DNA of 64,000 nucleotides from Thermoleophilia bacterium (GCA_031362405.1 JANLSO010000056.1:2981-66980), one strand, 5' to 3'. Counted from the stretch's first letter, positions 5,218 through 63,069 are shown. The notes: a model not told the origin generated them from the sequence alone. Made by a program: numbers and translations.

Positions 5218-6276
5218 TCACGAGACCCAGAGTCGGTCGAGTGGGACCGCGTAAAGGCGGTCATCAAGGCGGTACGCGTATGGGCCGGAGTGGAGCACGA
5301 CCCCTGCGAGGAACGACTCGCCTAACGAGTCTCGCAGCGTGCGAAGACCCTTGACGTCCTGGTCGCGGGCGCGGAGCCGGCCTTGATCTCGACGGCGGCG
5401 ACACCCCCGTCGTACCGCTCGAGGACCAGGTCGACCTCGGCTCCGTCGTGAGTGCGCCAGTGCCCCGTATGCGCGATCTCATCCGAGCAGGCGAGCTGCT
5501 TGTGGATCTCCCCGACGGCGAACGACTCCGTGAGGTGCCCGAGTTCCGTCAGCGCGCTGGGGGTGAGGCGGGCGAGGTTCGATGCGCCGAGCCGCAGCAT
5601 GTGGGCGGCAAGACCCGTGTCGGTGACATGGATCTTCGGGCTCGAAACTGCTCGGGCGCGCAGGGTCGTGCCCCAGGCGGGGAGGCGATACACCAAGAAG
5701 ACCGCCTCGAGCAGGCGCAGGTAGTTCTCTGCGGACGATGTCTCGAGGTCCGTATCTCGGGCGGCGCGGGAGACGTTCAGCATCTGGGCGGTTTGCCCAA
5801 CGATGCGAGCCAGGTAGCGGGGCATCCGATCGCGTTGTCTGATCCGCGAGAGTTCCACCACGTCGCGCTCCAGCACGCGAGCGAGGTAGTCGTCAAACCA
5901 ACGCGCCCGCCTTTGGCCTGGCGGCCTCGAGAGCGGAACGGGCATGCCCCCGCCCACGATCCGTTCGATGTATTCGGCCCGCGAGGTTGTCGACCGCGCC
6001 GAGACGACCATTTTGCCTGGATCGTTCAGGAGATGGTCGACGAACGTTTCGCGGACCCCATGGAGCTCGCCCTGCGAGAGAGGCCAGATCGCCATGATGT
6101 GAAGACGCCCCGTCAACGATTGCGCGGCCAAGGGAAGAGTCGCGTAGCTGGTCGAACCCGTGAGTACGAATCTCCCCGGTCGAAGTCCGCGATTCAGGTC
6201 CGCCTTGATGGCATCGAGAAGGGCAGGGGCATGTTGAAACTCGTCGATGAAGACCGGAGGTCTAGCATGAGATTCG

Positions 6277-13078: not shown

Positions 13079-15163
13079 ATGAGTTCGACCGGATATCCAC
13101 GGGCCCAGAAGGCACCGCCGTTCTCTCTCGCCCATGAGGCGCAAAAAGCGCGCTCTGACGTGCGGGCGCCGCGCGACCCGTTGGCCGCCGAACCGGGTGA
13201 GCGTACGGTTTATCGTCTGCGGCCCCGCGCGGCCGACGCCGGTCTTTCTCCTCGGTTGCGCGCGTTTCTCGACACCGAACAGCAGCAGGTGGTCGCCGAG
13301 GCGACTGGCCGTACGCTCGTGCTGGCCTCAGCGGGGTCGGGAAAGACCCGAGTGATCGTCGGCCTGGTGGCCCATCTGGTCGAGCGGGGGGCCGATCCGG
13401 CGTCGATCCTCCTTGTCACGTTCACCCGGCGAGCGGCGCGTGAGATGACCCTCCGCGCGCAGGCCGCGGCCGGCGTTGACCTTGCCGCCATGACGTCCGG
13501 CACTTTCCACTCGGTGTGCCAGCGCATCCTTCGTCGGTGGGGGTCGCTGGTCGGGTTGCCGTCACCATTCACGGTTCTCGACCGTGAAGACCAGGGCGAA
13601 CTCGTGCGTCTGTCGCGCGACGAGGTTCTGTCCGGACGCGAGACCCGGCCGTCGCTTCCCCGCCCCGAATGGATCGCCCAAACCGTCGGCCTTGCGGGCG
13701 AGTCGGGCCGACCCCTGGCCCAGGTGATCGTCGACCAGAACCCGCGGCTGGTCGACCGCGTCGACGAACTCGTGGCGATCGCCGCCGGCTACGAGCAGCG
13801 CAAGCGGGCGATGGGGGCCGTCGACTACGCCGACCTGCTCATCATGGCGGCGCGCCTTTTCGAGGAACACCCGGAAGTCCGCGAACGGGTCGCCACGACC
13901 GCCGAGTGGCTGCTCGTCGACGAGCTTCATGACGTGAACCCGGTGCAGGCGGGCCTCGTCGAGGCGCTCGGGGCTGCAGGGTCGAAGGTCGTTGCGGTCG
14001 CCGACCCCGACCAGTCGATCTATGGGTGGCGGGGAGCCGATCCCGAGGTCGTCTCCCGCTTCGCCGCGGTTGCCGGTACTCACGTCGTCCACCTGGGGCG
14101 CAACTACCGTTCGTCGGCGGAGATCGTCGACTTCGCCCAGGCGAGTCTTCCCGCCGGAAACCCCTGGGGAAAGAAGCTCACGGCAATGCGACCGTCGCTC
14201 GGGGCGCGACCCGTTGTGGCGCACCTGTCGTCGGTTGGTGACGAGGCCGCCTTCGTCACCCAGCGCATCGCGGATCTCATCACCGAGGGGCGCGACCCCG
14301 GCGATATCGGGGTGCTCTACCGCGCCCACCACCACTCGGTCGACCTGCAACTGGCCCTGGCCGAGGCCGGTGTCGAGTTCGAGCTGTACTCCGGCTCTCG
14401 GTTTGTGGAGAGCGCGCACGTCAAGGATGTCCTCGCGTTCTGCCGGCTGCGCCACAACCCCCGCGACACCCTGGCGTGGAGCCGGGCGCTGCGACTTGGC
14501 GAGCGGGTGGGCGAGCGGTCGAGCGCCCGGGCCATCGAGGCGATCGGTGAATGCGACGACCTGGCCACTGCAGTTGGTCGGCTGGAGAGCATCGATGGCC
14601 CGGCCGGCCGGGGTCCGCTCCTTGACACGTTTCGCCGGGTCTCCGAGACCGACCGGCCCGAGGAGATGGTGCTGCACGTCGCCCGATCGGAGTGGTATCG
14701 CGATCACCTGACGTCGCGCTATCCGAACGCCTCCGATCGCGAGGCCGATCTCGCACGGTTGGCCGAGATCGCGGCCCGCTCAGAAGATGTCGAGCGGCTG
14801 CTGGCGGATCTCCAACTTGCCGAGCGGGTGGAGGTCGACGAAGACACCTCCGGTCCGGCGCGCCGGGTGGCCTTGTCGTCAGTCCATCAGGCCAAAGGCC
14901 TCGAGTGGCCCGTGGTCTTTGTGCTCCAGGTCGAAGCGGGCTCGTTCCCGTCGAGCTGGGCGCTCAGCGAGGGCCGGCTGGATGAAGAAGAGCGCCTCTT
15001 CTACGTGGCGGTTACCCGGGCCGCTGACGAGCTCTACATGTGCCGCCCGATCCAGGCCAAGCGCCCGTGGGATACAGGCGCCAACCGGGTGGTGATCAAC
15101 AGCGGCATGGGTTTCCTCGACCGAGACCTCTCCGGCCTCGTCCACGAATGGTCGGTCCGGTAA
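13079..15163 (+). CDS. UvrD/Rep/PcrA-family ATP-dependent DNA helicase
   Basis: Walker A is LVLASAGSGKTRV. Also present are TFTRRAAREM, DELHDVNP (DExx-like), NYRSS, and C-terminal VHQAKGLEWPVVF and LFYVAVTRA motifs. Confidence 0.9.
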   Translation: MSSTGYPRAQKAPPFSLAHEAQKARSDVRAPRDPLAAEPGERTVYRLRPRAADAGLSPRLRAFLDTEQQQVVAEATGRTLVLASAGSGKTRVIVGLVAHLVERGADPASILLVTFTRRAAREMTLRAQAAAGVDLAAMTSGTFHSVCQRILRRWGSLVGLPSPFTVLDREDQGELVRLSRDEVLSGRETRPSLPRPEWIAQTVGLAGESGRPLAQVIVDQNPRLVDRVDELVAIAAGYEQRKRAMGAVDYADLLIMAARLFEEHPEVRERVATTAEWLLVDELHDVNPVQAGLVEALGAAGSKVVAVADPDQSIYGWRGADPEVVSRFAAVAGTHVVHLGRNYRSSAEIVDFAQASLPAGNPWGKKLTAMRPSLGARPVVAHLSSVGDEAAFVTQRIADLITEGRDPGDIGVLYRAHHHSVDLQLALAEAGVEFELYSGSRFVESAHVKDVLAFCRLRHNPRDTLAWSRALRLGERVGERSSARAIEAIGECDDLATAVGRLESIDGPAGRGPLLDTFRRVSETDRPEEMVLHVARSEWYRDHLTSRYPNASDREADLARLAEIAARSEDVERLLADLQLAERVEVDEDTSGPARRVALSSVHQAKGLEWPVVFVLQVEAGSFPSSWALSEGRLDEEERLFYVAVTRAADELYMCRPIQAKRPWDTGANRVVINSGMGFLDRDLSGLVHEWSVR

Positions 15164-15167
15164 GCCG

Positions 15168-15682
15168 TCAAGGGCTCGCACAGACGACGAAGGCCGTTGG
15201 GATGATCGAAGCGTTCCCGGTGTTGCGAACGACCGAACCCCATCCGGTAGGTAGGAGTCCCGCCCGAGTCGGGCCACGTGCCATCCGGACCGAGCGCGAA
15301 GCTCCGAGAGAGATCCACAAAGTCTGCGCTGGCGCCGCCGGAGACTGCTCGCACGCCATCCGCGCAGAGGGCACTCAATGACTCGCTTGAGTTAAGGGCA
15401 AGGGGCTTTGAGGGACGGCGGTCGCGCACCACTACGCTGGTTGCTCCAGGCGCACGCTGAGGGCCCTGAACACCGGCCACCACAACGCCTTCGGCGAAGT
15501 CGGCCTTCGTGAGGGATGCGCCCAGACCGTGTTCGAGGGGACGGCGCCGTTCTTGAGCTGGGGTCTGTGCCGACGCTGCCGGGGTCGAGGGCGGTGACGG
15601 CGTACGAGGTGCCGCCGAGGGCGACGAACAGCGCGAGCAGCGCCACATGGTGTCGCCGGACATACTCATGAGCAGTGGACAT
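15168..15682 (-). pseudogene. secreted/anchored actinobacterial hypothetical protein family, at least three frameshifts
   Basis: The signal-anchor MSTAHEYVRRHHVALLALFVALGGTSYAV is followed by conserved pieces in different frames: PQLKNGAVPSNTV; GASLTKADFAEGVVVAGVQGPQ..VVVRD..CADGVRAVSGGAS; and GWGSVVRNTGNASIIPTAFVVCA. Confidence 0.6.
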
Positions 15683-15760
15683 GACGACGACACCCCTGAG
15701 TCTCGATTTGCGCGCGACGCTTGCACACCGTGATATGAACGGTCAGGCGCGCATTCCGCG

Positions 15761-16603
15761 ATGATCATCTGCCCGGGTAACGGCACGTTGACGGTCGTTA
15801 AGCAGGTCGACCATCAGAGGCAGTGCGGAGTCTTCGCGCGGGCCTGGGGCAACGAGGAGTTCTCGCGACCCCCGGCCTACGACGACCTGATCGCCGCGGC
15901 CGAGATTCACGACGAGGGCTGGCGGACCTGGGAAGAGCACCCGTGCGTCGATGCAGCCGGGCGCCCGGTCGACTTCCCCGATCTCGCCCGAGACGACCAC
16001 ATCCCCCTCTACGAGCGGGGAATCCGCGCGGCGGTTGACGCCGGGCCGCGCGTCGGCCTGATCGTGAGCCTGCACGGGCAGGGTCTGTACGAGAAGCGCC
16101 TGGGCCTCGATGGCGCAGTACCCGCACGCGAGACCCGACCGGCAGCGGAGCAGGTCTTTCTCGCGACCCAAGACGACCTTCAGGTGGGTCTCCGGGCTCA
16201 GATCGACGGCCCTGACGTCGCGGAGTGGGCGTGGGCGGGCTTCCGGCTGCTCCAGGCCTGGGACGCACTCAGCCTCTACCTCACCTGGCGTGGTCTGCCG
16301 CGAGGCGCGACGTGGACGCTGCCGCGCGTCCCGAGATACGTCGGTGACGACGGGGTAGAGGTGCGGCTACGACCCGCAGATGCGCACAGATCGGTGCCGG
16401 GCACCGATCTGTGCGCATCTGCGTGCACCGTCGACCCCTGGCCCTTTCGGGGCGACCTCGTGGAGGCTCCCGTGGCCATGCGAGCCATCCCCGATCGCAC
16501 GTACGCCAACGACAGCGATCTCGCCGAAGAACTCGATCGGCAACCGTCGAGGGTCTGGTCGCTCGCGTTGCATCCCGTCCCTCACAAGCCCCGCTCATCG
16601 TGA
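15761..16603 (+). CDS. DUF3891-family protein carrying an internal palindrome
   Basis: 280 aa. QVDHQRQCGVFARAWGN, EIHDEGWRTWE and VDPWPF blocks resemble DUF3891. Codons for ADAHRSVPGTDLCASA are contributed by the 47-nt palindrome at 16376-16422. Confidence 0.6.
   Translation: MIICPGNGTLTVVKQVDHQRQCGVFARAWGNEEFSRPPAYDDLIAAAEIHDEGWRTWEEHPCVDAAGRPVDFPDLARDDHIPLYERGIRAAVDAGPRVGLIVSLHGQGLYEKRLGLDGAVPARETRPAAEQVFLATQDDLQVGLRAQIDGPDVAEWAWAGFRLLQAWDALSLYLTWRGLPRGATWTLPRVPRYVGDDGVEVRLRPADAHRSVPGTDLCASACTVDPWPFRGDLVEAPVAMRAIPDRTYANDSDLAEELDRQPSRVWSLALHPVPHKPRSS
16376..16422. repeat. 47-nt perfect palindrome (23+1+23) inside the DUF3891 CDS
   Basis: GCAGATGCGCACAGATCGGTGCC-G-GGCACCGATCTGTGCGCATCTGC. 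Its inner 35 nt match the palindrome at 24033-24067 apart from one symmetric position pair. Confidence 0.95.
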
Positions 16604-16618
16604 CTGCGAGCAGTCGTT

Positions 16619-16650
16619 GTCAACATCCGGTGCGCGCACCGGATGTTGAC
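16619..16650. repeat. 32-nt perfect palindrome between convergent genes (terminator-like position)
   Basis: GTCAACATCCGGTGCG/CGCACCGGATGTTGAC. Lies 16 nt after the DUF3891 stop and about 90 nt from the convergent DUF429 gene end. Arm sequence is related to 62709-62749. Confidence 0.9.
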
Positions 16651-16742
16651 TTCGTGATCGGCGGCACAACGTGTTGGGTGTTGAGGTGGGCGGCGTGCGG
16701 GGTTGGCGCGGCCTCGTGACGCGCATTGTGATGACCCGCCTG

Positions 16743-17552
16743 TTAGCGCGGGTAGCTGATCGCCACCCCTTCGGCGCGCATACGCTCGACGTTGATGGCA
16801 GCCCGATCGCGCATGTCTGCGTCGGCGAGGATCGCCGTGGGAGGTTCGTCTCCTAAAATCAGGATGTGCTCGGGCGTATGGATCAGGCGGTGTGCGACGA
16901 GGGCGCAGGCGATTGCATCCAGACGTGCGGCGTCGGCGATGGCGTCCCAATCGTCGCGCGGCACCCCTGGCCACCAGTCACCGAGTTCGACGGCCTCGGA
17001 AAGAAGGTCGGCGGCAGCAACGAGGCCGTCGGGGCGCGCCCTACCCGTTCCCTTCGGGCGATATCTCGGGGCACGCGTCCCGAGCCATGCGGCTCGGTAT
17101 GCGGCGATGCCGAGGGGAACGCCATCCTCGGGGCGCCCCCGCTGCCATGACAGCTGTCGCAGCACTGCTTCGGGAAGGGTCTCGACGAGTCGCCGCTCGG
17201 GCGAGGTGAGGGCCGAGCGCAGCGCTTCGCCGCGGCAACCGCCAAAGACCTGTTGCATACGCGCGCGCGACACGGGAAAGGCGGGCATATCCAGCCAAGA
17301 AAGCAGAGTTTCGACGGTCCGTTGGCCTCGCTCATTGGGCACATGCAGCGGCGCGTCGATCGCGAACACGGCCGGCCCGGCAGGCACCGCCGACTCGATG
17401 TCGGCGTCGGTGTCGAGGATCTCCAGACGTACCAACCGGCCAGACGGATCGATTTCGGCGAGCACCGACGGCCGCGGTGTTCCGAGGAGGTCTCTTGATG
17501 GCATCAGATGCAGGCCCAGCGCAATCACGACGTGGCCTTCGGCGACGGCCAA
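16743..17552 (-). CDS. hypothetical protein, possibly DUF429 (RNase H-like fold) family
   Basis: 269-aa ORF with normal codon bias. VFAIDAPL near the N-terminus and DAIACALVA near the C-terminus resemble DUF429 proteins. The assignment is tentative. Confidence 0.45.
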   Translation of the reverse strand: MAVAEGHVVIALGLHLMPSRDLLGTPRPSVLAEIDPSGRLVRLEILDTDADIESAVPAGPAVFAIDAPLHVPNERGQRTVETLLSWLDMPAFPVSRARMQQVFGGCRGEALRSALTSPERRLVETLPEAVLRQLSWQRGRPEDGVPLGIAAYRAAWLGTRAPRYRPKGTGRARPDGLVAAADLLSEAVELGDWWPGVPRDDWDAIADAARLDAIACALVAHRLIHTPEHILILGDEPPTAILADADMRDRAAINVERMRAEGVAISYPR

Positions 17553-17618
17553 CTGGACGCCGCGCCACGGCCCCGACTAGTCTGGCCCGATAAGCAACCC
17601 TCGAGGAGTGATGGCGTC

Positions 17619-17903
17619 ATGACTGCACTGCTGCTTTTACTGGTAGCTGCCCTTGCGCCGTGGATTGTGCACCTTGCCCCGCCCCGCCAGCGGCCGCTGG
17701 CCCTTGTCGGCGTTGTCGGCGTCTTCCTTCTGTTCGGCATCTTTACGAGTGCCAACCCCATCACCGCCTGGGAAAGCTGGGTTGGCCTGGCCGCCGGCGT
17801 CATCAGCGTTGTCGCTCTCTCCGCGGCCGGCGGCAGCGCAGGACCCCGTCGACCCGCGTCACGACGCGGCACCTACGATGACGACGGCGGCAGCACCGCT
17901 TAG
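17619..17903 (+). CDS. small membrane protein
   Basis: ATG 17619 after GAGGAG. Three hydrophobic segments (LLLLLVAALAPWIV, LALVGVVGVFLLFGIF, VGLAAGVISVVALSAAG). I recognise no family. Confidence 0.5.
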   Translation: MTALLLLLVAALAPWIVHLAPPRQRPLALVGVVGVFLLFGIFTSANPITAWESWVGLAAGVISVVALSAAGGSAGPRRPASRRGTYDDDGGSTA

Positions 17904-18084
17904 TCGCGGGGCGAGAGCACGCCGAAGCCGCCATCGCTCGCGGCGTGGCCAAGGCGGTCGTCGTAGGTGACGGTGGCATCAATTTGGGGGCCAGGGTGCG
18001 TGTGGTCGCGAGATGGATCGCGTCGAGCGAGTGCAGACCTCGGTCGGGTCCATTCATCGCCGCATCGTCGGTGCAGGTCGTCAC
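17900..18084 (-). pseudogene. PIN-domain (VapC) C-terminal remnant with frameshift
   Basis: LHSLDAIHLATTRTL continues after a shift at a C5 run as GPQIDATVTYDDRLGHAASDGGFGVLSPRD-stop. The N-terminal half of the PIN domain and any antitoxin are absent. Confidence 0.65.
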
Positions 18085-18106
18085 GACGGGCCGTGACGTC
18101 GGCAGG

Positions 18107-19513
18107 TCAGGGGTCGTTGGGCTCGAGGTACTCGTCGATCACCGTCTGCGCGCGCTGCGGGTCGTTCGTGAGGATCAAACCGCGACGTAGCGCCTTCACC
18201 CCGGCGGCCTTGCTCCCGGAGGCGATCAGGGCGATGCCCTGAGCAACCTGGGCGTTGTCGTACGTCGGGTCAAGGCTCACCGCAGCTCGAGCGGCCACGA
18301 CGGCTTCGGCGGGTTTCGTGGCGCGCACCAGCGAGAAGGCCGCAAAACTCGGCGAGGCCGGGTCACCGGTGTCGATCGCCTGTGCCGCCTGGAACGCCGC
18401 GGCCGCCTCCGGATTCTTGCCGAGGGCGTCGAGGGTCACCCCGCGACCGAACTGGGCTTCGGCGAGCTTTGGGTCTTTGCGAGCCGCACGGTTGTAGGCG
18501 CCAAGGGCCTTCTTATTCTGCTTGAGCGCGACCTGCAGCTCCGCCTGGATCAGCTCGCCCGGGGCGCTGGTCTTCCAGGCCTTCGGCCAGGTGCTGATGA
18601 GCTCCTCGGCATCGGCCGGCTTGCCGGTATCGATGAGGTAGCGGGCCCGCGCGACGGCGTAGGCGTACTGCGTGGGTTCACGTTTGGCGAGCACCGTGAG
18701 TGCGGCCGCGAAGTCGGGCAGGGCGTTCCAGTCGGGCTTCACGGTCGTCCCGAATGTGAGCTGTTGGGTGCCGCGCCGCACGATGATCGGCGTATCGGTG
18801 TCGGCCTTCAGGCCTCGTAATGCAGTACCCATGGAGCCGGTCGTCAGCGTTTGTTTGCCACCGATGCTGAGGATGACATCGCCGCGGCGGATCCCGCCGG
18901 CAATCGCGTCGCCCTTGGGAGCGAGAGCCACAACCAACTGGCCGCCCTGATTGGGGACCTTCAAGCTGCGGGCGAACTGGGGCCACAGGGGCACCGTGTA
19001 GGTGTCGAGGCGGCCGCGGGGCGCGGTCAACTTCAGCGAGATGACCTTCTCGATCGGTGCCGACACGCGGTTCTTGGAGTCGGTGGCCTGCACGCGCACC
19101 CGGTACTTGCCGGCCGGGAGCTGGAAGCGCTTGTCGTTGGTGGCCTCGATCATGAAATAAACCCGCCCCGGCGCGTCGGCACCGGGTGACGCGATCGTCT
19201 TGACGAGGTCACCCGAGCTGACGGCAAACACTTGGACGCCCACCCGCGCCGATGTTGCCGTGCGGATGCCGACGAGAAAGCGGGCGTGCCCCTGCCGCAG
19301 GCTGACCACCGACGACAGCTTCAGGCCGCTGAGCTTCGGCGGCCCCGCAACGGCCGTCGGGGGTGTGATCGTCGCCGGTGCGGTTGTGGTCGTCGGGGTC
19401 GACGTCGTCGTGGGGGCCGGGTCGGGGGCCTGCCCCAAAGCGACGACGCCGGAAAGTGTCCACGTGGTGACGAAGCCACTAACGATAACGGAGAAAATGC
19501 GGGTTCGCGTCAT
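18107..19513 (-). CDS. secreted PDZ-domain and TPR-repeat protein
   Basis: Signal-like MTRTRIFSVIVSGFVTTW and a Thr/Pro-rich linker. PDZ-like GGIRRGDVILSIGGKQ. C-terminal TPR-like repeats (ALGAYNRAARKDPKLAEAQFGRGVTL...). Confidence 0.7.
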   Translation of the reverse strand: MTRTRIFSVIVSGFVTTWTLSGVVALGQAPDPAPTTTSTPTTTTAPATITPPTAVAGPPKLSGLKLSSVVSLRQGHARFLVGIRTATSARVGVQVFAVSSGDLVKTIASPGADAPGRVYFMIEATNDKRFQLPAGKYRVRVQATDSKNRVSAPIEKVISLKLTAPRGRLDTYTVPLWPQFARSLKVPNQGGQLVVALAPKGDAIAGGIRRGDVILSIGGKQTLTTGSMGTALRGLKADTDTPIIVRRGTQQLTFGTTVKPDWNALPDFAAALTVLAKREPTQYAYAVARARYLIDTGKPADAEELISTWPKAWKTSAPGELIQAELQVALKQNKKALGAYNRAARKDPKLAEAQFGRGVTLDALGKNPEAAAAFQAAQAIDTGDPASPSFAAFSLVRATKPAEAVVAARAAVSLDPTYDNAQVAQGIALIASGSKAAGVKALRRGLILTNDPQRAQTVIDEYLEPNDP

Positions 19514-19554
19514 GGCGGATGAGGTTACCAGCACCCCTGTACGCTCCGCGATCG

Positions 19555-20865
19555 ATGTCGGTCCCGCTCGCCCCTCTCGAGCTCCTCGAGCGCAGCCGAC
19601 GCGGCGAGACCGTTGACGCCGAGAGCGTCGCGTACTTCGTGCGCAACTGGTTCGGCGGCGGCGCGACCGATGCCCAGATGGCCGCGTGGTGCATGCTGGC
19701 CTGCCTGCAGGGGCTCGATTCGGCCGCCGTGGCCGCCCTCACGGCCGAGCTGATCGCCACCGGGGACCGCCTTGATCTGGGCTCGTTGGGCCCGACGGGC
19801 GACACCCATTCGACCGGCGGAGTCGGGGACACCACCACTTTGGTTGCGGTGCCGATCGCCGCCGCCCTCGGGGTGCGGGTCGCCAAGATGAGCGGCCGCG
19901 GGTTGGCGCATACAGGTGGCACCGTCGACAAATTGGAGGCCATTCCCGGGTACCAGGCCGACCTGCATCTGGCCGATTTCGTTCGGCAGATCAAGGATGT
20001 CGGCTGTGCAGTGATCTCCCAGACCGATCGGCTCACCCCGGGCGACAAACGTCTGTACGCGCTTCGCGACCAGACCGCCACGGTGCAGAGCGCCGGGCTG
20101 ATCGCCGCATCGATCATGAGCAAGAAGCTCGCGGGTGGGGCATCGGCCATCGCCCTCGACGTGAAGTGCGGCGATGGCGCGTTCTTCGCGACGCCCGAGG
20201 AGGCCCGACACGCCGCCGAGCTGATGGTCTCGCTCGCGGAGCCCTGGGGGCGGACCGTGCGTTGGATGGCCACCGACATGAGTCAGCCTCTTGGCGGCGC
20301 CGTCGGGAACGCTCTGGAGGTGCGACAGGCCGCCGCCGTGCTGCGCGGGGCGGGACCACCCGACCTGCGCGAGCTCGGCCTGCGCGTCGCGGCCGAGCTG
20401 GCCGAAGCCTCCGGTGTCGCCCCCGTCGGCGACGGCCTTGCGCGGGCCGAAGCCACGATCATCGACGGAACCGCCCTGGCCATGGCCGAGCGGTGGGTCG
20501 AGGCCCAGGGCGGCGAGCCCGCCGTGTGGACCGACGACGACGCGCTGCCGTCGGCGCCGATCCGGCTGGATGTCGTCGCCCCCCACGACGGGTGGCTGGC
20601 CGCGCTTCCGGCGCGGGCGCTCGGAGAGGCCGCCCGGCGGCTCGGTGCCGGCCGCCTGCATCCTTCGCAGAACGTCGATCCGGCGGTGGGTCTGGAATTG
20701 CGCGCCAAGGTCGGCCACGCGGTGACCGCGGGCGAGCCGGTGATCGTCGTGCACGCCCGCGATATGGCCTTGGCCGAGGCGTGTGTCGCTAACCTGGCCA
20801 CGCGCATCGTCGTCTCGCAGACACAGGTCGCCGCGCCGCCCCTCATCGTGGCGAGCGATGCCTGA
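19555..20865 (+). CDS. deoA: thymidine / pyrimidine-nucleoside phosphorylase
   Basis: HSTGGVGDTTTLVAVPIAAALGVRVAKMSGRGLAHTGGTVDKLEAIPGY and the KRLYALRD motif. ATG 19555 inside listed ORF 19519..20865. Confidence 0.92.
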   Translation: MSVPLAPLELLERSRRGETVDAESVAYFVRNWFGGGATDAQMAAWCMLACLQGLDSAAVAALTAELIATGDRLDLGSLGPTGDTHSTGGVGDTTTLVAVPIAAALGVRVAKMSGRGLAHTGGTVDKLEAIPGYQADLHLADFVRQIKDVGCAVISQTDRLTPGDKRLYALRDQTATVQSAGLIAASIMSKKLAGGASAIALDVKCGDGAFFATPEEARHAAELMVSLAEPWGRTVRWMATDMSQPLGGAVGNALEVRQAAAVLRGAGPPDLRELGLRVAAELAEASGVAPVGDGLARAEATIIDGTALAMAERWVEAQGGEPAVWTDDDALPSAPIRLDVVAPHDGWLAALPARALGEAARRLGAGRLHPSQNVDPAVGLELRAKVGHAVTAGEPVIVVHARDMALAEACVANLATRIVVSQTQVAAPPLIVASDA

Positions 20866-21703
20866 GCTTCCCGAGGTCGAGACGATCCGGCGCCAGTTGA
20901 GCGAGCGCATCCCGGGCCGCACGATCACCCGGTTCGACGTGCTCGACCCGCGCCTGACCGCCCCGGACGACCCCGAGGCCGTTGCTGCCGAGGTGGTCGG
21001 GCAGCGCATCGAAAGCGTCGAGCGGCGTGGGAAATACCTGCTCATACGGCTTTCCGGCGGGGAGACCCTCGCCGCACATCTGCGCATGACGGGTCGTCTG
21101 CATTGGCGGGCGGGCCCACCTGCCGAGGGCGAACGTTTCGTGCGCGCGGTGATCGACCTCGACGACGGTGCCACGCTGACGTTCGGCGACCAGCGCCGCT
21201 TCGGCCGGGCGTGGATCATCCCCGCGGGTACCGATGAGGCCGGCTACTGGCGCGGCCGGGTTGGCCTGGAGCCGCTCACGAAGGCGTTCACCGCCGACGA
21301 GCTTGGGCGTCTCATGGACGGGCGACGGATCGTCATCAAAGCGGCCCTTCTGAACCAGGCCCTCGTGGCGGGAATCGGAAACATGTACGCCGACGAGGCC
21401 CTCTTTCAGGCCAGGGTGCACCCCGAACGGCCCGCCGGGTCGCTGTCGCGAAGTGAACACGTGCGCCTGCACCGTGCCGTGCGCGATCGCCTGCGCGCCG
21501 CGATCGACGCCGGCGGCGCGTCGATCGACACGTACCGCGACGGCCTCGGAAACAAGGGCGAGATGCAGAACCTGCTGCGGGTCCACCTGCACGCGGGCGA
21601 GCCGTGCCCGCGGTGCCGCCAGATCATCCGAAAGACGCGCGTCGCCCAACGCGGTACCTATTGGTGCCCGCGCTGCCAGCCCCGCTTCGGAGGCTCGGCG
21701 TGA
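20858..21703 (+). CDS. mutM: formamidopyrimidine-DNA glycosylase
   Basis: MPELPEVETIRRQL N-terminus, H2TH region, and C-terminal zinc finger CPRC..YWCPRCQ. Overlaps the deoA stop. Confidence 0.95.
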   Translation: MPELPEVETIRRQLSERIPGRTITRFDVLDPRLTAPDDPEAVAAEVVGQRIESVERRGKYLLIRLSGGETLAAHLRMTGRLHWRAGPPAEGERFVRAVIDLDDGATLTFGDQRRFGRAWIIPAGTDEAGYWRGRVGLEPLTKAFTADELGRLMDGRRIVIKAALLNQALVAGIGNMYADEALFQARVHPERPAGSLSRSEHVRLHRAVRDRLRAAIDAGGASIDTYRDGLGNKGEMQNLLRVHLHAGEPCPRCRQIIRKTRVAQRGTYWCPRCQPRFGGSA

Positions 21704-22653
21704 CCTGGGTCGACGGGGTTCGGGTCGGCCATTGGACCGACGCCGAAGCCGGTACGGGCTGCACGGTGATCGTCCCCCCGCCGGGGACCCTCGGCTCGGT
21801 CGACGTCCGTGGTGGTGGGCCGAGCACGCGTGAGACCGAGCTGCTGTCGCCGATGACGAGCGTCGAGCACGTGACGGCGGTCCTTCTGACCGGCGGCAGT
21901 GCGTTTGGCCTCTCGGCGGCGGGCGGGGTGATGCGGTTCTGTGAAGAGCAGGGCCTCGGCCACCAGGCCGGTGCGGCGAGGGTTCCCATCGTGCCGACCG
22001 CGGTGATCTACGACCTCGGGATTACCGCCAACGCCCGCCGGCCGGGCCCCGACGATGCGTACGCCGCCTGCCAGGCCCTGACTGAGGGGCCGCCGCAGAT
22101 GGGCAGCGTCGGCGCGGGTACCGGCGCGACGGTCGGCAAGCTGATGGGCCAATCCGGATGGTGCAAGGGGGGCCTTGGGGTGAGCACGGTGCGCCTGCCT
22201 GGTGGGATGACGGTCGCGGCGATCGCCGTGGTGAACGCGTTCGGTGATGTCCTCGATGAGGCGGGCGAGGTTCTTGCCGGGGCATGGACACCCGAGCGCG
22301 GCTTCATCCGTTCGTCCCGCTATGCGCTGACCGAAGGCCCGGCCCATCCCCGGTTGGCGGCCGACTTCAACACGACCCTCGTCTGCGTGCTGACCGACGG
22401 AACGCTGACCAAGGTCGAGGCCGCCCAGGTCGCACGGATGGCCTCGGCGGGATTGTGCCGGGCGGTGTCACCGGTGCACACGCCGTTCGACGGCGACGTC
22501 GTCTTTTGCCTGTCGACTCGCCAGGGGCCCGCGAGCGCCTTCGCGTGCGGCATCGCCGCGGCAGAGGTGACGTCGGAGGCGATCCGTGCCGGTGTCCGTG
22601 CCGCCACGAGCCTGCGCGGAGTTCCGACCGCCGAGCAGCGCCGCCAGATTTAG
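21700..22653 (+). CDS. P1/S58-family aminopeptidase (DmpA/BapA-like)
   Basis: GVRVGHWTDAEAGTGCTVIV..DVRGGGPSTRETELL and LLTGGSAFGL motifs. GTG overlaps the mutM stop (GTGA). Confidence 0.8.
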   Translation: MTWVDGVRVGHWTDAEAGTGCTVIVPPPGTLGSVDVRGGGPSTRETELLSPMTSVEHVTAVLLTGGSAFGLSAAGGVMRFCEEQGLGHQAGAARVPIVPTAVIYDLGITANARRPGPDDAYAACQALTEGPPQMGSVGAGTGATVGKLMGQSGWCKGGLGVSTVRLPGGMTVAAIAVVNAFGDVLDEAGEVLAGAWTPERGFIRSSRYALTEGPAHPRLAADFNTTLVCVLTDGTLTKVEAAQVARMASAGLCRAVSPVHTPFDGDVVFCLSTRQGPASAFACGIAAAEVTSEAIRAGVRAATSLRGVPTAEQRRQI

Positions 22654-22913
22654 GCGGCGCGCCCCAGAAGCGTGTCGAGCTCACCGCTCTTGTCGAGGGC
22701 GGAGAGGTCGTCCCAGCCACCGATGGGCGTGTCGTCGATGATGATCTGCGGCACGGTGCGCCGACCGGTCAGCTCGACCAGCGCCTCCCGGGCAGAGTTG
22801 TCCGAAAGGCCGATGTGGCGCTCTTCGAACTCCACGCCCTTGGTTTCGAGAAGTCGCTTGGCCCGGGCGCAGTAGGGGCAGCGGTCGCCGGTGTACATCA
22901 CGATATTAGGCAT
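22650..22913 (-). CDS. glutaredoxin
   Basis: 87 aa. Active site CPYC (MYTGDRCPYCARAKRLL), plus TVPQIIIDD and GGWDDL motifs. Its stop codon overlaps the convergent S58 stop (TTAG). Confidence 0.9.
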   Translation of the reverse strand: MPNIVMYTGDRCPYCARAKRLLETKGVEFEERHIGLSDNSAREALVELTGRRTVPQIIIDDTPIGGWDDLSALDKSGELDTLLGRAA

Positions 22914-22970
22914 ACCCCCAAGGGTACCAGACACGCTTCGGCTGGCCGAAGGGGGTGCCATCATCCAGCC

Positions 22971-23753
22971 ATGCCGACCTTCGAAACCGACGCGGTCGTG
23001 CTGCGGGGGATCCGCTACGGCGAGGCGGATACCGTTTTGACCTTGCTCACCCGCGAGCACGGGCTCGCTTCGGCGATGGCCAAGGGTGCGCGCAAGACCA
23101 CCTCAAAGCTCGGTGGGCGCCTCCAGCCGGGAGTCTGGGTGCGCCTCACCCTGGTCCGCGGCCGCGGCGACATGCACACGATCCGCGGTGCGTCGGTTGT
23201 GCAGGCGCATGCCGGGCTGTGGGTCGAGGGCTACCGGTTACAGGCGGCGAGCTCGGTCCTGGAGGCGGCGATGAGGACGCTCCCCGAAGGCCAAGAAGAC
23301 GAGGCCGCCTTCACCCTTGTTGTGCGCACGCTGGAGCACCTCGCCACGGCGATTCCGCTGGAGGGGCCGGCCCGGCTGGACCCCCTGGTGCTGAGCGCCC
23401 AGGCAAAGCTCCTTGTGGTGGCCGGACTGGTGCCGCGGCTGGGCTCGTGCGCCTCGTGCGGAGCGCCCCCGCCCCTAGTCGGCTTCTCGGCGCGGATGGG
23501 CGGTGCGCTGTGCCATGACTGCGCGGTCTCGGGGGAGCCGTTCTCCGACCACTCCCGCGAAGGTCTAGCCGCGCTGCTCGGGAACCCCTTGGCGGAGGCC
23601 CGCCGACTGATCGATCCACCGGCCGCTCTGGGGATCGAGCGCGTGATCGGGCTCCTGCTCCACGAACACATGGGGGTGGAATTACGCTCCGCTACGCCGG
23701 TTGAAGGCTCGTGGCGCGCGCGTTCAAAGGCGATAGGTCCCCGCCGAAGGTAG
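22971..23753 (+). CDS. recO: DNA repair protein RecO
   Basis: FETDAVVLRGIRYGEADTVLTLLTREHGL OB-fold N-terminus and zinc motif CASCGA..CHDC. ATG 22971 inside listed ORF 22284..23753. Confidence 0.9.
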   Translation: MPTFETDAVVLRGIRYGEADTVLTLLTREHGLASAMAKGARKTTSKLGGRLQPGVWVRLTLVRGRGDMHTIRGASVVQAHAGLWVEGYRLQAASSVLEAAMRTLPEGQEDEAAFTLVVRTLEHLATAIPLEGPARLDPLVLSAQAKLLVVAGLVPRLGSCASCGAPPPLVGFSARMGGALCHDCAVSGEPFSDHSREGLAALLGNPLAEARRLIDPPAALGIERVIGLLLHEHMGVELRSATPVEGSWRARSKAIGPRRR

Positions 23754-23768
23754 GGGTGCCGCTGCACG

Positions 23769-24041
23769 GTGAGGAGGCTCTATCCGTCCATCTCAAGGCC
23801 TGGACTGTTAGCACCGCCGGGCGTCGAACGCTCAGACATCGTGGATCAGATTCGCAAGCTCGCCGAGCTCCGCGACGCGGGAATCCTCACCGAGGTGGAG
23901 TTCGACGCGAAGAAGGTCGAGCTGCTCGCCAAGTTGGAGGGATCTGAGATCCGCACGAGAGCCAGCGTGCGGAGTGGTGGACATGACAGTCCCGCTCCGC
24001 GCTTGCACGTCTGGCGTTTCCAAATCTTCTTAGGCGCATAG
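23769..24041 (+). CDS. SHOCT-domain small protein
   Basis: IVDQIRKLAELRDAGILTEVEFDAKKVELLAKL is a SHOCT motif. The start is uncertain (GTG 23769 or 23839). An unusual 34-residue tail after the domain runs into the 24033 palindrome. Confidence 0.55.
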   Translation: MRRLYPSISRPGLLAPPGVERSDIVDQIRKLAELRDAGILTEVEFDAKKVELLAKLEGSEIRTRASVRSGGHDSPAPRLHVWRFQIFLGA

Positions 24042-24067
24042 ATCGGTGCCGGGCACCGATCTATGCG
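24033..24067. repeat. 35-nt perfect palindrome (17+1+17), twin of the 16376 element
   Basis: GCGCATAGATCGGTGCC-G-GGCACCGATCTATGCGC. Sits between the convergent SHOCT and acyl-CoA ligase genes and overlaps the SHOCT ORF stop codon. Confidence 0.95.
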
Positions 24068-24126
24068 CAGGGACTCAGGCTGCCCCCCCGGCATCCAGAG
24101 GGCTGCCATAGGAAGGACCGTTCTGT

Positions 24127-24196
24127 GAGTACCGCATTTTACGCAGCGATGAGTACCGCTTTTACGCAGTGCCGAGTACCGCTTTTCTGCAGCGGT
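24127..24196. repeat. three tandem 23-24-nt direct repeats
   Basis: GAGTACCGCATTTTACGCAGCGAT / GAGTACCGCTTTTACGCAGTGCC / GAGTACCGCTTTTCTGCAGCGGT. The last unit abuts the stop codon of the minus-strand ligase gene. Confidence 0.85.
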
Positions 24197-25725
24197 CAGC
24201 CCGGGGGCGTATCCCAGTAGGGCGCTCGCAGGAGGAACTTCTGGATCTTTCCGGTGGCGGTACGGGGTAGGGAATCGCGCACCTCGACCCGTGTCGGGCA
24301 CTTGAAGGTCGCCATCCGCGACTTGGCGTGCGCGATGAGGTCGGCCTCCGAAGCAGTGAGTCCGCCGCCGAGCACGACCAGGGCCATGACCGTCTCGCCC
24401 CAGCGCTCGTGGGGGACGCCGATCACGGCGACCTCGACGACGGCCGGATGGTCGCGCAGGCAGTCCTCTACTTCGATCGAGGAGATGTTCTCCCCGCCGG
24501 AGATGATGACGTCCTTCTTGCGGTCGGTGATCAGCAGGTGGTGCGCGTCGTTGAGTTCACCTCCATCACCGGTGTGGAGCCATCCTCCGTCGAGGGCCCG
24601 CGCGGTGGCGTCGGGATCGTCCCAGTAGGCCTCGAGCACATGGTTCGAGCGGGCGAGAACCTCGCCGTGCTCGTCGACGCGGATGCTCACGCCGATCAGC
24701 TCCATCCCTTGGCGCGAGAGCCGGGCGGCGCGCTGGTCGGGGGTGAGGTCATCCGACTCGGGCCCCGCCCGGTTGATGGTGATGACCGGCGAGCTCTCGG
24801 TGAGGCCGTAGCCGTGGATCAACTCCCACCCGAGTTCTTCCTCGACCCGTCGGATCGTCGAAGTAGGCGGCGAAGCGCCGCCGGTCATCACGCGCATTCG
24901 GCCATGCTGGGGCGTCTCCTCACCCCGCGCTCGCGTCGCGACCCCGGCCGCGAGGACCGCGTCGATCACGGCGGGCGCACACGCGGTGAGCGTCACGCCC
25001 TCGGCGGAGATCCGACGCAGAATCTCCAAGCCGTCGACCTTCCTCTGCATCACCTGGCGCGCGCCCATCGCGGCCAGGCCATAGGGGAGACCCCACCCGT
25101 TGCAGTGAAAGAGCGGCTGAGTCTGCAGGTACACATCGCGGGCCGACACTCCAAGGTGCCAGCCGAAGCTCACCGCGTGCAGCCAGAGGGTGCGATGGGT
25201 GAGCTGCACGCCCTTCGGCCGGGCGGTGGTCCCCGAGGTGTAGTTGATCGAGGCGGTGGCGTCCTCGTCCGGCTCCCAGCTGGTGGGGCGCTGGTCGCTC
25301 TCGGCGAAGAGCGCGGCGTCCGCGACGCCGTCCATCAGGATCGTCTCGATGCCATCGAGATCGCCGAGGGAGGCCGCGATCTCGGGATCAATCAGCACCA
25401 CCCGTGAGCCCGAGTGACGAACGATGTAGGCGATCTCCGTGGCGTTGAGCCGGAAGTTGATCGGCACCAGCACCCGCCCGTGGGCGCTCACGCCGAAAAG
25501 GGAGACGACGAAACGTGCGGAGTTGGGGCTGACGATCGCGACCCGCTCGCCGAGGCCCACGCCCACGCGCTCAAGCTCGCGCGCCATTCCCCACGATCGG
25601 CGCTGGAGTCCGGCGAACGAGACCTCACCAAGGCTCGCCGGGCCGGGTTCGTCGACGATGGCCACACGATCGCCGTGGAGGCCGGCGCGATCGATGAAAT
25701 CCAGCAGTGTCAGCGGAACTTTCAT
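24196..25725 (-). CDS. AMP-dependent acyl-CoA synthetase/ligase (FadD-like)
   Basis: AMP-binding signature INYTSGTTARPKGV, plus GYGLTES, WLHTGDGG and C-terminal RTATGKIQK. Confidence 0.9.
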   Translation of the reverse strand: MKVPLTLLDFIDRAGLHGDRVAIVDEPGPASLGEVSFAGLQRRSWGMARELERVGVGLGERVAIVSPNSARFVVSLFGVSAHGRVLVPINFRLNATEIAYIVRHSGSRVVLIDPEIAASLGDLDGIETILMDGVADAALFAESDQRPTSWEPDEDATASINYTSGTTARPKGVQLTHRTLWLHAVSFGWHLGVSARDVYLQTQPLFHCNGWGLPYGLAAMGARQVMQRKVDGLEILRRISAEGVTLTACAPAVIDAVLAAGVATRARGEETPQHGRMRVMTGGASPPTSTIRRVEEELGWELIHGYGLTESSPVITINRAGPESDDLTPDQRAARLSRQGMELIGVSIRVDEHGEVLARSNHVLEAYWDDPDATARALDGGWLHTGDGGELNDAHHLLITDRKKDVIISGGENISSIEVEDCLRDHPAVVEVAVIGVPHERWGETVMALVVLGGGLTASEADLIAHAKSRMATFKCPTRVEVRDSLPRTATGKIQKFLLRAPYWDTPPG

Positions 25726-33678: not shown

Positions 33679-33722
33679 GGGAAATGTCATAACCGGTGTC
33701 TGGCACCGGTTATGACATTTCC
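33679..33722. repeat. 44-nt palindrome (19-nt arms, short centre)
   Basis: GGAAATGTCATAACCGGTG-tctgg-CACCGGTTATGACATTTCC. Lies at the 3' end of the second DUF4143 pseudogene. Confidence 0.9.
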
Positions 33723-33744
33723 CCGGTGGCATGACGCACTGCGC

Positions 33745-61324: not shown

Positions 61325-62038
61325 ATGACTGACGCTTCCTCACCCGCGCCGCTGGCCGATCGTCTGGTGCAATCGCTCGCCGAGAACCGTGCCCGGCTCG
61401 AGCAGTTGATGACCCAGGAGAGTTCCCGGGCCATCCACGAGGAGTTCCTGCTCGCCGAGTCGGGCACGCTGCCCGATCGCGAGACCCGGCTTCAGCGTGC
61501 GCGCTCGACGAGTGCCCGGGCATGGCTGCGCCATCTGGCGGCATCGGTCGCCGAGGAATGGCAGGCGGCGCCCGCGGGCCTTCACGAGCCGCTCGAGCAG
61601 CACATCATGCGGGGCATCGAGCGCTTCGAGGCGCTCAGCCTCGAGGAGGAGGCCGCCCTCGAGCGCGAGGGGTTGTCGGGCGACCCGCAGGCCAACACTC
61701 GGCGCGTGACCCTCGGCGCCTACATGCGACTGTTCGCCGAAGGCGTCGGCGAGCATGGTTCGCCCGATGGGGAGAGTGGCCCGGAGTTCGGCAAGCGCGT
61801 CACGCTCGTGATGCGTCGTGAAGCGTCGCGACGCCGACAGGTCGAAAAGGAAGCATTCGAGGCCTGGAGCGGCAGCGACATGAAGGGCATCGAAGACACC
61901 AAGGTGACCGCTGCTCCGCCCGAGACCAAGAACATCCGGGTTGTCGAGGCCGCCGCATGCTGGTCGTACGTACGGATCCTCGCCGACTCCTTGGGCGAGG
62001 TTCTCGACGCCATCCCGCCGGCACCGGCCCCGGGCTGA
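61325..62038 (+). CDS. hypothetical protein (helical, acidic)
   Basis: 237-aa ORF with genome-typical codon bias. No motif recognised. Confidence 0.5.
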   Translation: MTDASSPAPLADRLVQSLAENRARLEQLMTQESSRAIHEEFLLAESGTLPDRETRLQRARSTSARAWLRHLAASVAEEWQAAPAGLHEPLEQHIMRGIERFEALSLEEEAALEREGLSGDPQANTRRVTLGAYMRLFAEGVGEHGSPDGESGPEFGKRVTLVMRREASRRRQVEKEAFEAWSGSDMKGIEDTKVTAAPPETKNIRVVEAAACWSYVRILADSLGEVLDAIPPAPAPG

Positions 62039-62049
62039 CCACCCCCGCC

Positions 62050-62658
62050 GTGTTGACGCGCTTCGTCGACGAGCACCCCTTCGGCCTTGGCTGGATCTCT
62101 CCCCAGCCGGCCTTCATGCAGCGCTGCTCGCACGCACTCGTTGACGACGGCGGCGCGGTGTGGTGGATCGACCCCGTCGACGAGCCCCTCGGCGTCGAGC
62201 GCGCCCTGCGCCTCGGCCCCCCGGCCGGAGTGATCCAGCTCCTCGATCGTCACAACCGCGACTGCGCGGCCCTCGCGAAACGGTTCGGTGTACCGCACCA
62301 CCGGCTGCCGAAAACCGGGCCGACGGGAAGCCCGTTCGAGGTAAGGCGCGTCGTCAACATCCCCGGCTGGCGCGAGATCGCTCTCTGGTGGCCCGAACGC
62401 GAAGTTCTGGTGGTCGCCGACTGCCTGGGAACAGCCTCGTACTTCTTGGCTGCCCGAGACGCCATCGGCCCGCACCCGATGCTGCGGATGTTCCCGCCCA
62501 AAGCCCTTGGCCGCCTCGGCGCCCGACAGGTTCTCTGCGGCCACGGCCCCGGCCTTCACGGCGACGACGTTGCGGACCGGCTTACCTCGGCCCTGAGACG
62601 CTCCCGCCGGCGCATCCCCGCCTGGCTCGTCGGCCTGCTGCGCGGCCGCGGAAAGTAG
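62050..62658 (+). CDS. conserved actinobacterial hypothetical protein
   Basis: GTG 62050 inside listed ORF 61957..62658. CSHALVDDGGAVWWIDP, VIQLLDRHNRDCA and ALWWPEREVLVVADCLGT blocks resemble a conserved family of unknown function. Confidence 0.5.
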   Translation: MLTRFVDEHPFGLGWISPQPAFMQRCSHALVDDGGAVWWIDPVDEPLGVERALRLGPPAGVIQLLDRHNRDCAALAKRFGVPHHRLPKTGPTGSPFEVRRVVNIPGWREIALWWPEREVLVVADCLGTASYFLAARDAIGPHPMLRMFPPKALGRLGARQVLCGHGPGLHGDDVADRLTSALRRSRRRIPAWLVGLLRGRGK

Positions 62659-62708: not shown

Positions 62709-62749
62709 CAATGTCAACATCTGGTGCCCGGCATCAGATGTTGACATTG
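62709..62749. repeat. 41-nt palindrome (20+1+20, one G/T mismatch) between convergent genes
   Basis: CAATGTCAACATCTGGTGCC-C-GGCATCAGATGTTGACATTG. Arms are related to 16619-16650 (GTCAACATCYGGTGC) and 33679-33722 (AATGTCA..GGTG). Confidence 0.9.
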
Positions 62750-62775: not shown

Positions 62776-63069
62776 TTAGAGGTCCTCGCCGTCGGGTCCG
62801 AGCGCGCGGGACCGGCGGCGGCCGATAACGAATGCGCACCCCATGATGAGCAGGACGCCGATGATCGCGCCCCAGGGGAGTTCGTCGGTGGTCCCGGTGA
62901 TCAACGCGATGGCGAAGACCCCGATGATCATCACTGAGCCCAGGATGAGGACGCCGCGGAGCATGTTCGGAGCGCGGCCGTCGTCGTCGGGCGTCGAATC
63001 GTCGCCCGTCGGCGTCTGGTCAGGTTCACGAAGCGGAGGAGGTCTGCGGCGCGGCGGGGGTTTCGTCAC
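62776..63069 (-). CDS. small membrane protein
   Basis: 97 aa. Pro/Arg-rich N-terminus followed by two hydrophobic helices (LRGVLILGSVMIIGVFAIALI, GAIIGVLLIMGCAFVIG). Confidence 0.5.
   Translation of the reverse strand: MTKPPPRRRPPPLREPDQTPTGDDSTPDDDGRAPNMLRGVLILGSVMIIGVFAIALITGTTDELPWGAIIGVLLIMGCAFVIGRRRSRALGPDGEDL

Follow-up and report, generated by a model that had tools for sequence, protein, structure and literature searches.

A perfect palindrome in a DUF3891 gene of a Thermoleophilia-like actinobacterium is probably a REP-type repeat inserted in frame

The DUF3891 gene and its palindrome

The window, which denotes the whole 64-kb stretch of DNA that was analysed, contains a DUF3891 gene whose coding sequence encloses a long perfect palindrome, and four related hairpins lie outside this gene (Table 1).

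Table 1. Positions of the DUF3891 gene, its palindrome and the related hairpins in the 64-kb window
Feature	Position	Strand	Description
DUF3891 host gene, 280 aa	15761..16603	+	Pfam PF13030, E = 9.5e-39
Perfect palindrome, 49 nt	16375..16423		24 + 1 + 24 nt, in frame, codons 205/206 to 221
35-nt repeat core GCGCACAGATCGGTGCCGGGCACCGATCTGTGCGC	16382..16416		common to the copy at 24034-24068
33 nt missing from L001 and L002	16388..16420	+	DNA alignment, gap as placed by the aligner
Related hairpin, 32 nt, perfect (GTCAACATCCGGTGCG/CGCACCGGATGTTGAC)	16619..16650		16 nt past the DUF3891 stop codon
Second copy of the 35-nt core	24034..24068		convergent SHOCT ORF (23769-24041) on one side, acyl-CoA synthetase (24196-25725) on the other
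Related hairpin GGGAAATGTCATAACCGGTG TCTGG CACCGGTTATGACATTTCCC	33679..33723		stretch without a clear gene
Related hairpin CAATGTCAACATCTGGTGCC C GGCATCAGATGTTGACATTG	62709..62749		between convergent ORFs 61957-62658 (+) and 62776-63069 (-)

The palindrome is composed of two 24-nt arms (CGCAGATGCGCACAGATCGGTGCC and GGCACCGATCTGTGCGCATCTGCG) that are 100% complementary and are separated by a single nucleotide (G16399). The initial annotation had placed a 47-nt palindrome at 16376–16422 in the reading frame of a DUF3891 gene. Its sequence is as described there, but one more base pairs on each side, and the full length is 49 nt. The ORF and its Pfam match bear out the gene assignment, and the proposed coding capacity of about 16 codons corresponds to residues A206–A221 (ADAHRSVPGTDLCASA), beyond which the conserved VDPWPF...R241...Y248 tail stays in frame. 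The 23-nt arm occurs at only two sites in the window with up to three mismatches permitted, and no match is found in any of 100 dinucleotide-preserving shuffles. As single-stranded DNA, the 49-mer folds with −32.4 kcal/mol (z = −11.1), and a 111-nt mRNA context yields −75.1 kcal/mol compared with −45.8 kcal/mol for shuffles (z = −8.7). Owing to the self-complementarity of the DNA, the same peptide is encoded on the opposite strand; the centre codon reads CCG in one direction and CCC in the other, which gives proline both times. The minus-strand ORF 16276..16509 does include HADAHRSVPGTDLCASAG, as had been pointed out initially, but this sharing is an automatic effect of symmetry and is no evidence for a gene.

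A search of a large protein collection returned 256 DUF3891 homologues at E ≤ 1e-5. The AlphaFold2 model of the window protein, generated from 24 sequences, has a mean pLDDT of 93.6 and a pTM of 0.91. A Foldseek comparison of the model with the PDB gave no neighbour at E ≤ 0.001, and the fold thus offers no clue to the function. Faint matches are seen to chains of the HD-domain 5'-deoxynucleotidase YfbR (E ∼1.3), and the invariant H18, H50-D51, H80 and H105 residues of DUF3891 would suit a putative metal-binding site.

A lineage-specific gain of 33 nt

In an alignment of the best 120 of the 256 homologues, the P205–C222 loop comprises 18 residues in the window protein only, whereas it comprises 6–8 residues in the other 119 sequences (7 residues in 115, 6 in three and 8 in one). 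Eleven columns of the alignment are occupied by no residue in any of these 119 homologues. The uniqueness of the insertion to this genome, for which the initial annotation had suggested such a comparison, is thereby confirmed against these 119 homologues, but its size is 11 residues (33 nt) instead of the ∼16 expected, since the ends of the palindrome fall on codons that the homologues have as well.

The two closest DUF3891 homologues, L001 (JGI sample 3300081714) and L002 (sample 3300081566), are encoded on contigs that are syntenic with the window, with amino acid identities of 95–98% for the helicase, 88% for the DUF429 protein and 92% for the product of the next gene. Exactly 33 nt are extra in the window when the DNA is aligned, with high identity on either side. 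The site reads GAT / GCGCAC...ATCT (39 nt) / GCGTGC in the window, GAT / GACGGC / GCATGC in L001 and GGT / CGGGAG / ATATGT in L002. The interval 16388..16420 reflects the aligner's choice, and the true borders within the palindrome are not fixable; since the element is palindromic and the host loop differs between the relatives, neither exact borders nor a target-site duplication can be defined. The insertion is derived and lineage-specific and amounts to a net 33 nt, and the reading frame is therefore kept. The only possible duplication is 2 nt long (AT...AT at the 16375 copy and AG...AG at the 24034 copy), which is within chance. A MITE, expected to measure 70–300 bp and to show both terminal inverted repeats and duplications of its target site, was considered and rejected, as the unit measures only 33–49 nt and its flanks are inverted, not direct.

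In the structure model, residues 206–220 form the turn that joins the β-strands of residues 199–205 and 221–225, and the model confidence dips only at this turn (pLDDT <50 for residues 209–213). The same turn is tight in DUF3891 homologues and consists of four residues. The 11 added residues are thus modelled as an extension of the turn of a β-hairpin.

The DUF3891 dN/dS values (Nei-Gojobori) are 0.22 for the window versus L001, 0.16 for the window versus L002 and 0.25 for L001 versus L002, both of which are insertion-free; such pairwise values mix times, and the period after the insertion is not separable within them. At 0.16–0.25, the values indicate purifying selection without visible decay of the gene, which from its sequence still looks functional. 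DUF3891 shares 75–77% amino acid identity with its L001 and L002 orthologues, compared with 88–98% for the flanking helicase, DUF429 and next gene, and its dN/dS of 0.16–0.25 compares with 0.03–0.16 in the neighbouring genes at 13079–15163, 16743–17552 and 17508–17903. Because this divergence is raised in all comparisons, it is a property of the gene itself and not of the insertion, and DUF3891 is a fast-evolving gene irrespective of the insertion.

The 11-residue loop (AHRSVPGTDLC) adds a cysteine and a histidine, and the insertion could have been kept because the loop confers a new property on the protein. The purifying selection on the gene would agree with such a role, as would the predicted exposure of the loop at the β-hairpin tip. 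The peptide is, on the other hand, simply what the repeat gives in one of its three frames, and the same DNA gives PGTD in a chance ORF at another locus (L003). The loop is also the part of the model with low confidence, and it occurs in one sequence only, so that its conservation cannot be shown. We regard a selected new property as very unlikely.

Related hairpins in the window and beside RAYT genes in other bacteria

The 35-nt core of the intragenic palindrome and its second copy are identical at 33 of 35 bases. They differ by C/T in the left arm and by G/A in the right, a symmetrical and compensating pair of changes that leaves both copies perfect palindromes. All five strong hairpins of the window have the apex GGTGC(C/G)-N-(C/G)GCACC in common, and the three hairpins other than the 35-nt copies (16619, 62709 and 33679) carry ATC(N) ahead of the apex. 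The 64 kb contain the 35-mer twice and the same-apex hairpin five times. As DNA, the window hairpins fold with −16.5 to −32.4 kcal/mol (z of −7.5 to −11.1). Three of the four extragenic copies (16619, 24034 and 62709) are situated between convergent genes, the one at 16619 facing DUF429, and the 16375 copy is the only intragenic one among the five. A search of the whole window against Rfam at gathering thresholds matched no family.

L001 has the hairpin at 16619 in the same place, altered by compensating T>A / A>T substitutions, and L002 lacks it. In L049, whose acyl-CoA synthetase is 89% identical to that of the window, the orthologous intergenic region is without the copy found in the window and contains other hairpins, whose apex is GGTGCCTGGCACC. 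The repeat family thus undergoes turnover between close relatives. L049 originates from the same JGI sample as L002, and its imperfect hairpins (∼2310–2360 and 2445–2481; TCTGTCACACCCGGTGCC T GGCACCGTTGGTGACAGA; the second at the contig end) sit elsewhere than the 24034 copy of the window. No empty site for the 24034 copy could be delimited in L049, as the sequence between the genes has diverged too far. The TAG stop codon of the SHOCT ORF falls within the 24034 copy, and the repeat may have shifted the stop of this ORF by analogy with GTAG REPs (PMC3733652). The ORF encodes 90 aa, with the SHOCT domain at residues 26–49 followed by 41 more residues. The sequence at 24126–24194, which lies between the 24034 copy and the acyl-CoA synthetase stop codon, repeats a unit of 23 nt three times in tandem (consensus TGAGTACCGCTTTTACGCAGCGA, with 84% matches), and about two of these units are kept in L049.

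The positions of the extragenic hairpins and the one compensating change suggest that these copies probably serve as 3'-end hairpins between convergent genes, either as transcript ends or as stabilisers. Actinobacteria use 'I-shaped' terminators, which are hairpins without a U-tract at the 3' ends of genes. The window hairpins resemble such terminators in having perfect, G+C-rich stems that sit between convergent genes and are not followed by a T-run. A sequence-specific common apex or a near-identical recurrence is not expected of 'I-shaped' terminators, however, and the 16375 copy is located inside an ORF that reads through.

The intragenic hairpin could itself be a selected regulator, acting as an attenuator or terminator, as an RNase-processing or mRNA-stabilising site or as a ribosome-pausing signal for the DUF3891 C-terminus; an intragenic attenuator had been the alternative offered by the initial annotation. 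The very high stability of the mRNA stem speaks for such a function, as do the related hairpins at gene 3' ends, which could end or stabilise transcripts, and the compensating change in the extragenic 16619 hairpin. The sequence downstream of the stem (TGCACCGTCGACC), however, lacks the T/U run of an intrinsic terminator or attenuator, and a promoter and terminator scan of 15000–25000 found nothing at the palindrome (16375–16440). The hairpin is missing in both syntenic relatives and in all 119 homologues and is therefore no conserved feature of the DUF3891 gene; past the hairpin, the ORF stays in frame through its conserved C-terminal motifs. A regulatory role has a very low probability on these grounds, and the attenuator proposal is not upheld.

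The inner part of the palindrome recurs beyond the window. The 21-nt core GATCGGTGCCNGGCACCGATC was detected at only 10 loci in a scan of one genome per species, and the 23-mer AGATCGGTGCCNGGCACCGATCT was detected in 29 metagenome contigs, twelve of which come from one sample. The flanks directly outside the 23-mer are unrelated at most of the metagenome loci, although some loci are mutually orthologous according to the clustering of flanking ORFs. This clustering replaced a classification of copy positions by ORF and GC3, which proved too noisy. As the copies were retrieved by exact match, conservation at the metagenome sites is unusable as evidence of selection. The 23-nt palindrome is located within ∼150 nt of a contig end at seven of the retrieved loci (L027, L028, L039, L040, L041, L019 and L006), which fits dispersed repeats that break assemblies and suggests that the true copy number in the organisms concerned is higher than counted. 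In L003, a Solirubrobacteraceae MAG, the 21-nt core with a central G (5234–5254) is positioned at or just before the extreme 5' end of a gene whose N-terminus appears TetR-like by eye; its longest ORF would start inside the palindrome with MPGTD.

A palindrome could also result from faulty assembly or sequencing, for instance from a chimeric fold-back, and the window belongs to a metagenome-type contig of 80,920 nt. The palindrome is nevertheless short and in frame with collinear gene sequence on either side, a second independent copy lies on the same contig, and the core is found in many independent assemblies. An artefact is therefore extremely unlikely.

Three of the 10 loci with the 21-nt core (L008, L011 and L006) carry it just upstream of a Y1_Tnp gene. 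The L008 gene belongs to the IS200-like transposase family (PF01797, E = 2.7e-12), and the Y1_Tnp protein contains an HVH (HUH-type) motif and the tyrosine motif YIPRNPV. JGI names for the homologues are 'REP element-mobilizing transposase RayT' or 'REP-associated tyrosine transposase'. RAYT-like genes are positioned at 1540–2157 in L008, 3824–4441 in L011 and 5900–6650 in L042 and are also present in L044–L047. The L042–L047 orthologues represent one conserved locus of epimerase, RAYT, glgC and glgE, which in several uncultured bacteria consists of an NAD-dependent epimerase, the RAYT, a glgC-like NTP transferase and glgE; L013 has the epimerase and the palindrome, yet no RAYT match. Hairpins with GGTGCCAGGCACC are located on either side of the RAYT orthologues in L042–L047, with AGATCGGTGCCAGGCACCGATC or ATCCGGTGCCAGGCACCGG upstream and, for example, CGCGGTGCCAGGCACCGGGG downstream. 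The RAYT-proximal 5' hairpin of L008 and L042 is accompanied by GTAG 16–18 nt upstream and CTAC 8 nt downstream. The central base of the core is G in the window copies and A or T in the RAYT-flanking and most other copies. The core thus flanks Y1 transposase genes in other bacteria in the same layout as in REPtrons (PMC3733652, PMC3337134). A tblastn search with three RAYT proteins found no RAYT gene in the 64-kb window. When the window proteins were compared by tblastn with the RAYT-bearing loci, one 34% helicase match was obtained, which is uninformative.

Origin and consequences of the intragenic copy

The 33-nt gap in two syntenic relatives and the membership in a repeat family support the initial reading of the palindrome as an in-frame insertion tolerated by the protein, and the inserted element is probably a REP-type repeat. 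Like REPs, which are short (20–40 nt), G+C-rich stem-loop palindromes in several dispersed copies (PMC3116915, PMC3337134, PMC3733652), the element here is a short G+C-rich stem-loop palindrome (a 35-nt core, or 49 nt with the local extension) with mostly extragenic copies. Further likenesses to REP/RAYT systems are that most copies are downstream of ORFs or between convergent genes, that one copy gives a TAG stop, that in other bacteria the core flanks genes for Y1 transposases with the name RayT and that this transposase is found at a single conserved locus, which agrees with the vertical inheritance of RAYTs. The window copies differ from known REPs in that they are perfect palindromes with a 1-nt centre. 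A GTAG/CTAC or CGTC/GACG tag next to the stem, which is typical of the best-studied classes of REPs (PMC3733652), is not common to the flanks of the five window hairpins, and the CGTC located 6 nt past the 49-mer belongs to conserved sequence of the gene and occurs in L001 as well. The window copies are single perfect palindromes and lack the doublet layout of REPINs (PMC3337134); doublets or extra half-sites are observed at only some metagenome loci (L030, L013, L017 and L026). The host is a Thermoleophilia-like actinobacterium, unlike the well-studied REP hosts, which are Proteobacteria.

Di Nocera, De Gregorio and Rocco (2013, PMC3733652) described REPs that reside wholly within ORFs as well as REPs that give TAG stop codons. 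The short peptides added by intragenic REPs occupy loops or linkers, and these REPs are for this reason presumed to be neutral (PMC3733652). The DUF3891 copy is comparable, as the unit lies wholly inside the ORF for a known protein and adds a short peptide. In contrast to the documented intragenic REPs, which are GTAG- or CGTC-tagged, more than half of which are dimers of 20–30 aa and many of which are in replication and repair genes (PMC3733652), it is one untagged unit, and its contribution to the DUF3891 protein is 11 aa. Rickettsia palindromic elements (RPEs) are in-frame selfish repeats in functional genes (PMC10969869), and the DUF3891 case resembles them as a palindromic repeat placed in frame in a functional gene with the frame and the protein kept. 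RPEs differ in that they are ∼100–150 bp long, encode a conserved peptide of 30–50 aa, form Rickettsia-specific families and have dozens of genic insertions per genome (PMC10969869), whereas the present unit of 33–49 nt, from an actinobacterium-like host, has one intragenic copy in the 64-kb window.

Several observations stand against the reading as a REP-type repeat. The 64 kb contain no RAYT gene and only two copies of the 35-mer. The window copies lack the tag and the doublet layout of the best-studied REP classes, and their centre is G where the RAYT-flanking copies have A or T. The 35-nt core by itself shifts the frame, and the net gain of 33 nt therefore requires that 2 nt were lost or that the mobile unit measures 33 nt. 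In addition, the palindrome runs 7 bp past the shared core into codons that partly match the ancestral ones: the left outer arm CCGCAGAT resembles CCGGCGAT of L001, and on the right only ATCT is clearly new. Simple insertion does not predict this 7-bp outer stem. A fixed outer boundary of the repeat unit was also rejected, as the copies have only the inner core in common.

These outer bases, in which the right arm has GCG where L001 has GCA, and the perfection of the palindrome are the features that favour an origin in place by a replication template switch (strand-switch or quasi-palindrome correction) without any mobile element. Template switching is an established route to perfect palindromes (Ripley-type models). 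An origin of this kind does not account for the central 35 nt, which agree at 33 of 35 bases with a second locus at a distance of 7.6 kb, or for the inner 21–23 nt, which recur in many unrelated contexts including RAYT genes, and the site in the relatives (GACGGC and CGGGAG) provides no seed for the core. It is very unlikely as the source of the whole palindrome, although template switching could account for the outer 7-bp extension alone.

If the palindrome is a REP-type insertion, three readings fit the extension. A 33-nt unit may have entered at the exact centre of a prior 16-nt palindrome, CGCAGATGCATCTGCG, which would preserve the usual 7-residue loop P-A-D-A-S-A-C; a 35-nt unit may have been inserted with the loss of 2 nt; or the palindrome may have been lengthened later by intrastrand template switching. 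At least three extra copy-specific paired bases are present in five of the 28 independent metagenome copies of the 23-mer, compared with ∼0.4 expected by chance. These extra pairs may mark subfamilies whose stems are longer, or they may result from one of the three processes. A broader and rather doubtful proposal is that hairpins of this family grow by copying their flanks across the dyad or prefer the centres of short existing palindromes or hairpin loops. Such growth or central insertion would account for the 7-bp extension, the net gain of 33 nt and the extra paired bases; if it were true, REP-type repeats would actively rewrite neighbouring coding sequence into palindrome.

For the favoured reading as an inserted REP-type repeat, the following course of events is proposed. 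A short G+C-rich hairpin repeat that is dispersed in the genome would have entered the DUF3891 coding sequence. Because the same core adjoins RAYT-type transposase genes in other bacteria, a Y1 (IS200-like) transposase of this type, encoded elsewhere in the genome, may spread the family via single-stranded hairpin DNA. Natural selection would have kept only an insertion with a length that is a multiple of three in a tolerant loop, and the event presumably survived because its net length is a multiple of three and its site is the tip of a β-hairpin. The passenger would add a very stable mRNA stem and a cruciform-prone DNA site, and the intragenic copy is most likely neutral or slightly costly, without a selected function.

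The DUF3891 insertion is a new example of a documented kind of event, which here concerns a new lineage and a REP variant without a tag, and it leaves existing knowledge of REP-type elements unchanged. It provides a clean and datable case, since the empty sites in syntenic relatives set the event at a net 33 nt, and the confident structure model offers a plausible explanation of how the protein tolerates a REP-type hairpin in its coding sequence. For annotation, it is a warning that odd loop insertions of 10–20 residues in high-G+C genomes can stem from repeats. The case extends intragenic REP-type events to an uncultured Thermoleophilia-like actinobacterium and points to a REP family with the apex GGTGCC-N-GGCACC that lacks the GTAG/CGTC tag yet is RAYT-associated in other uncultured bacteria.
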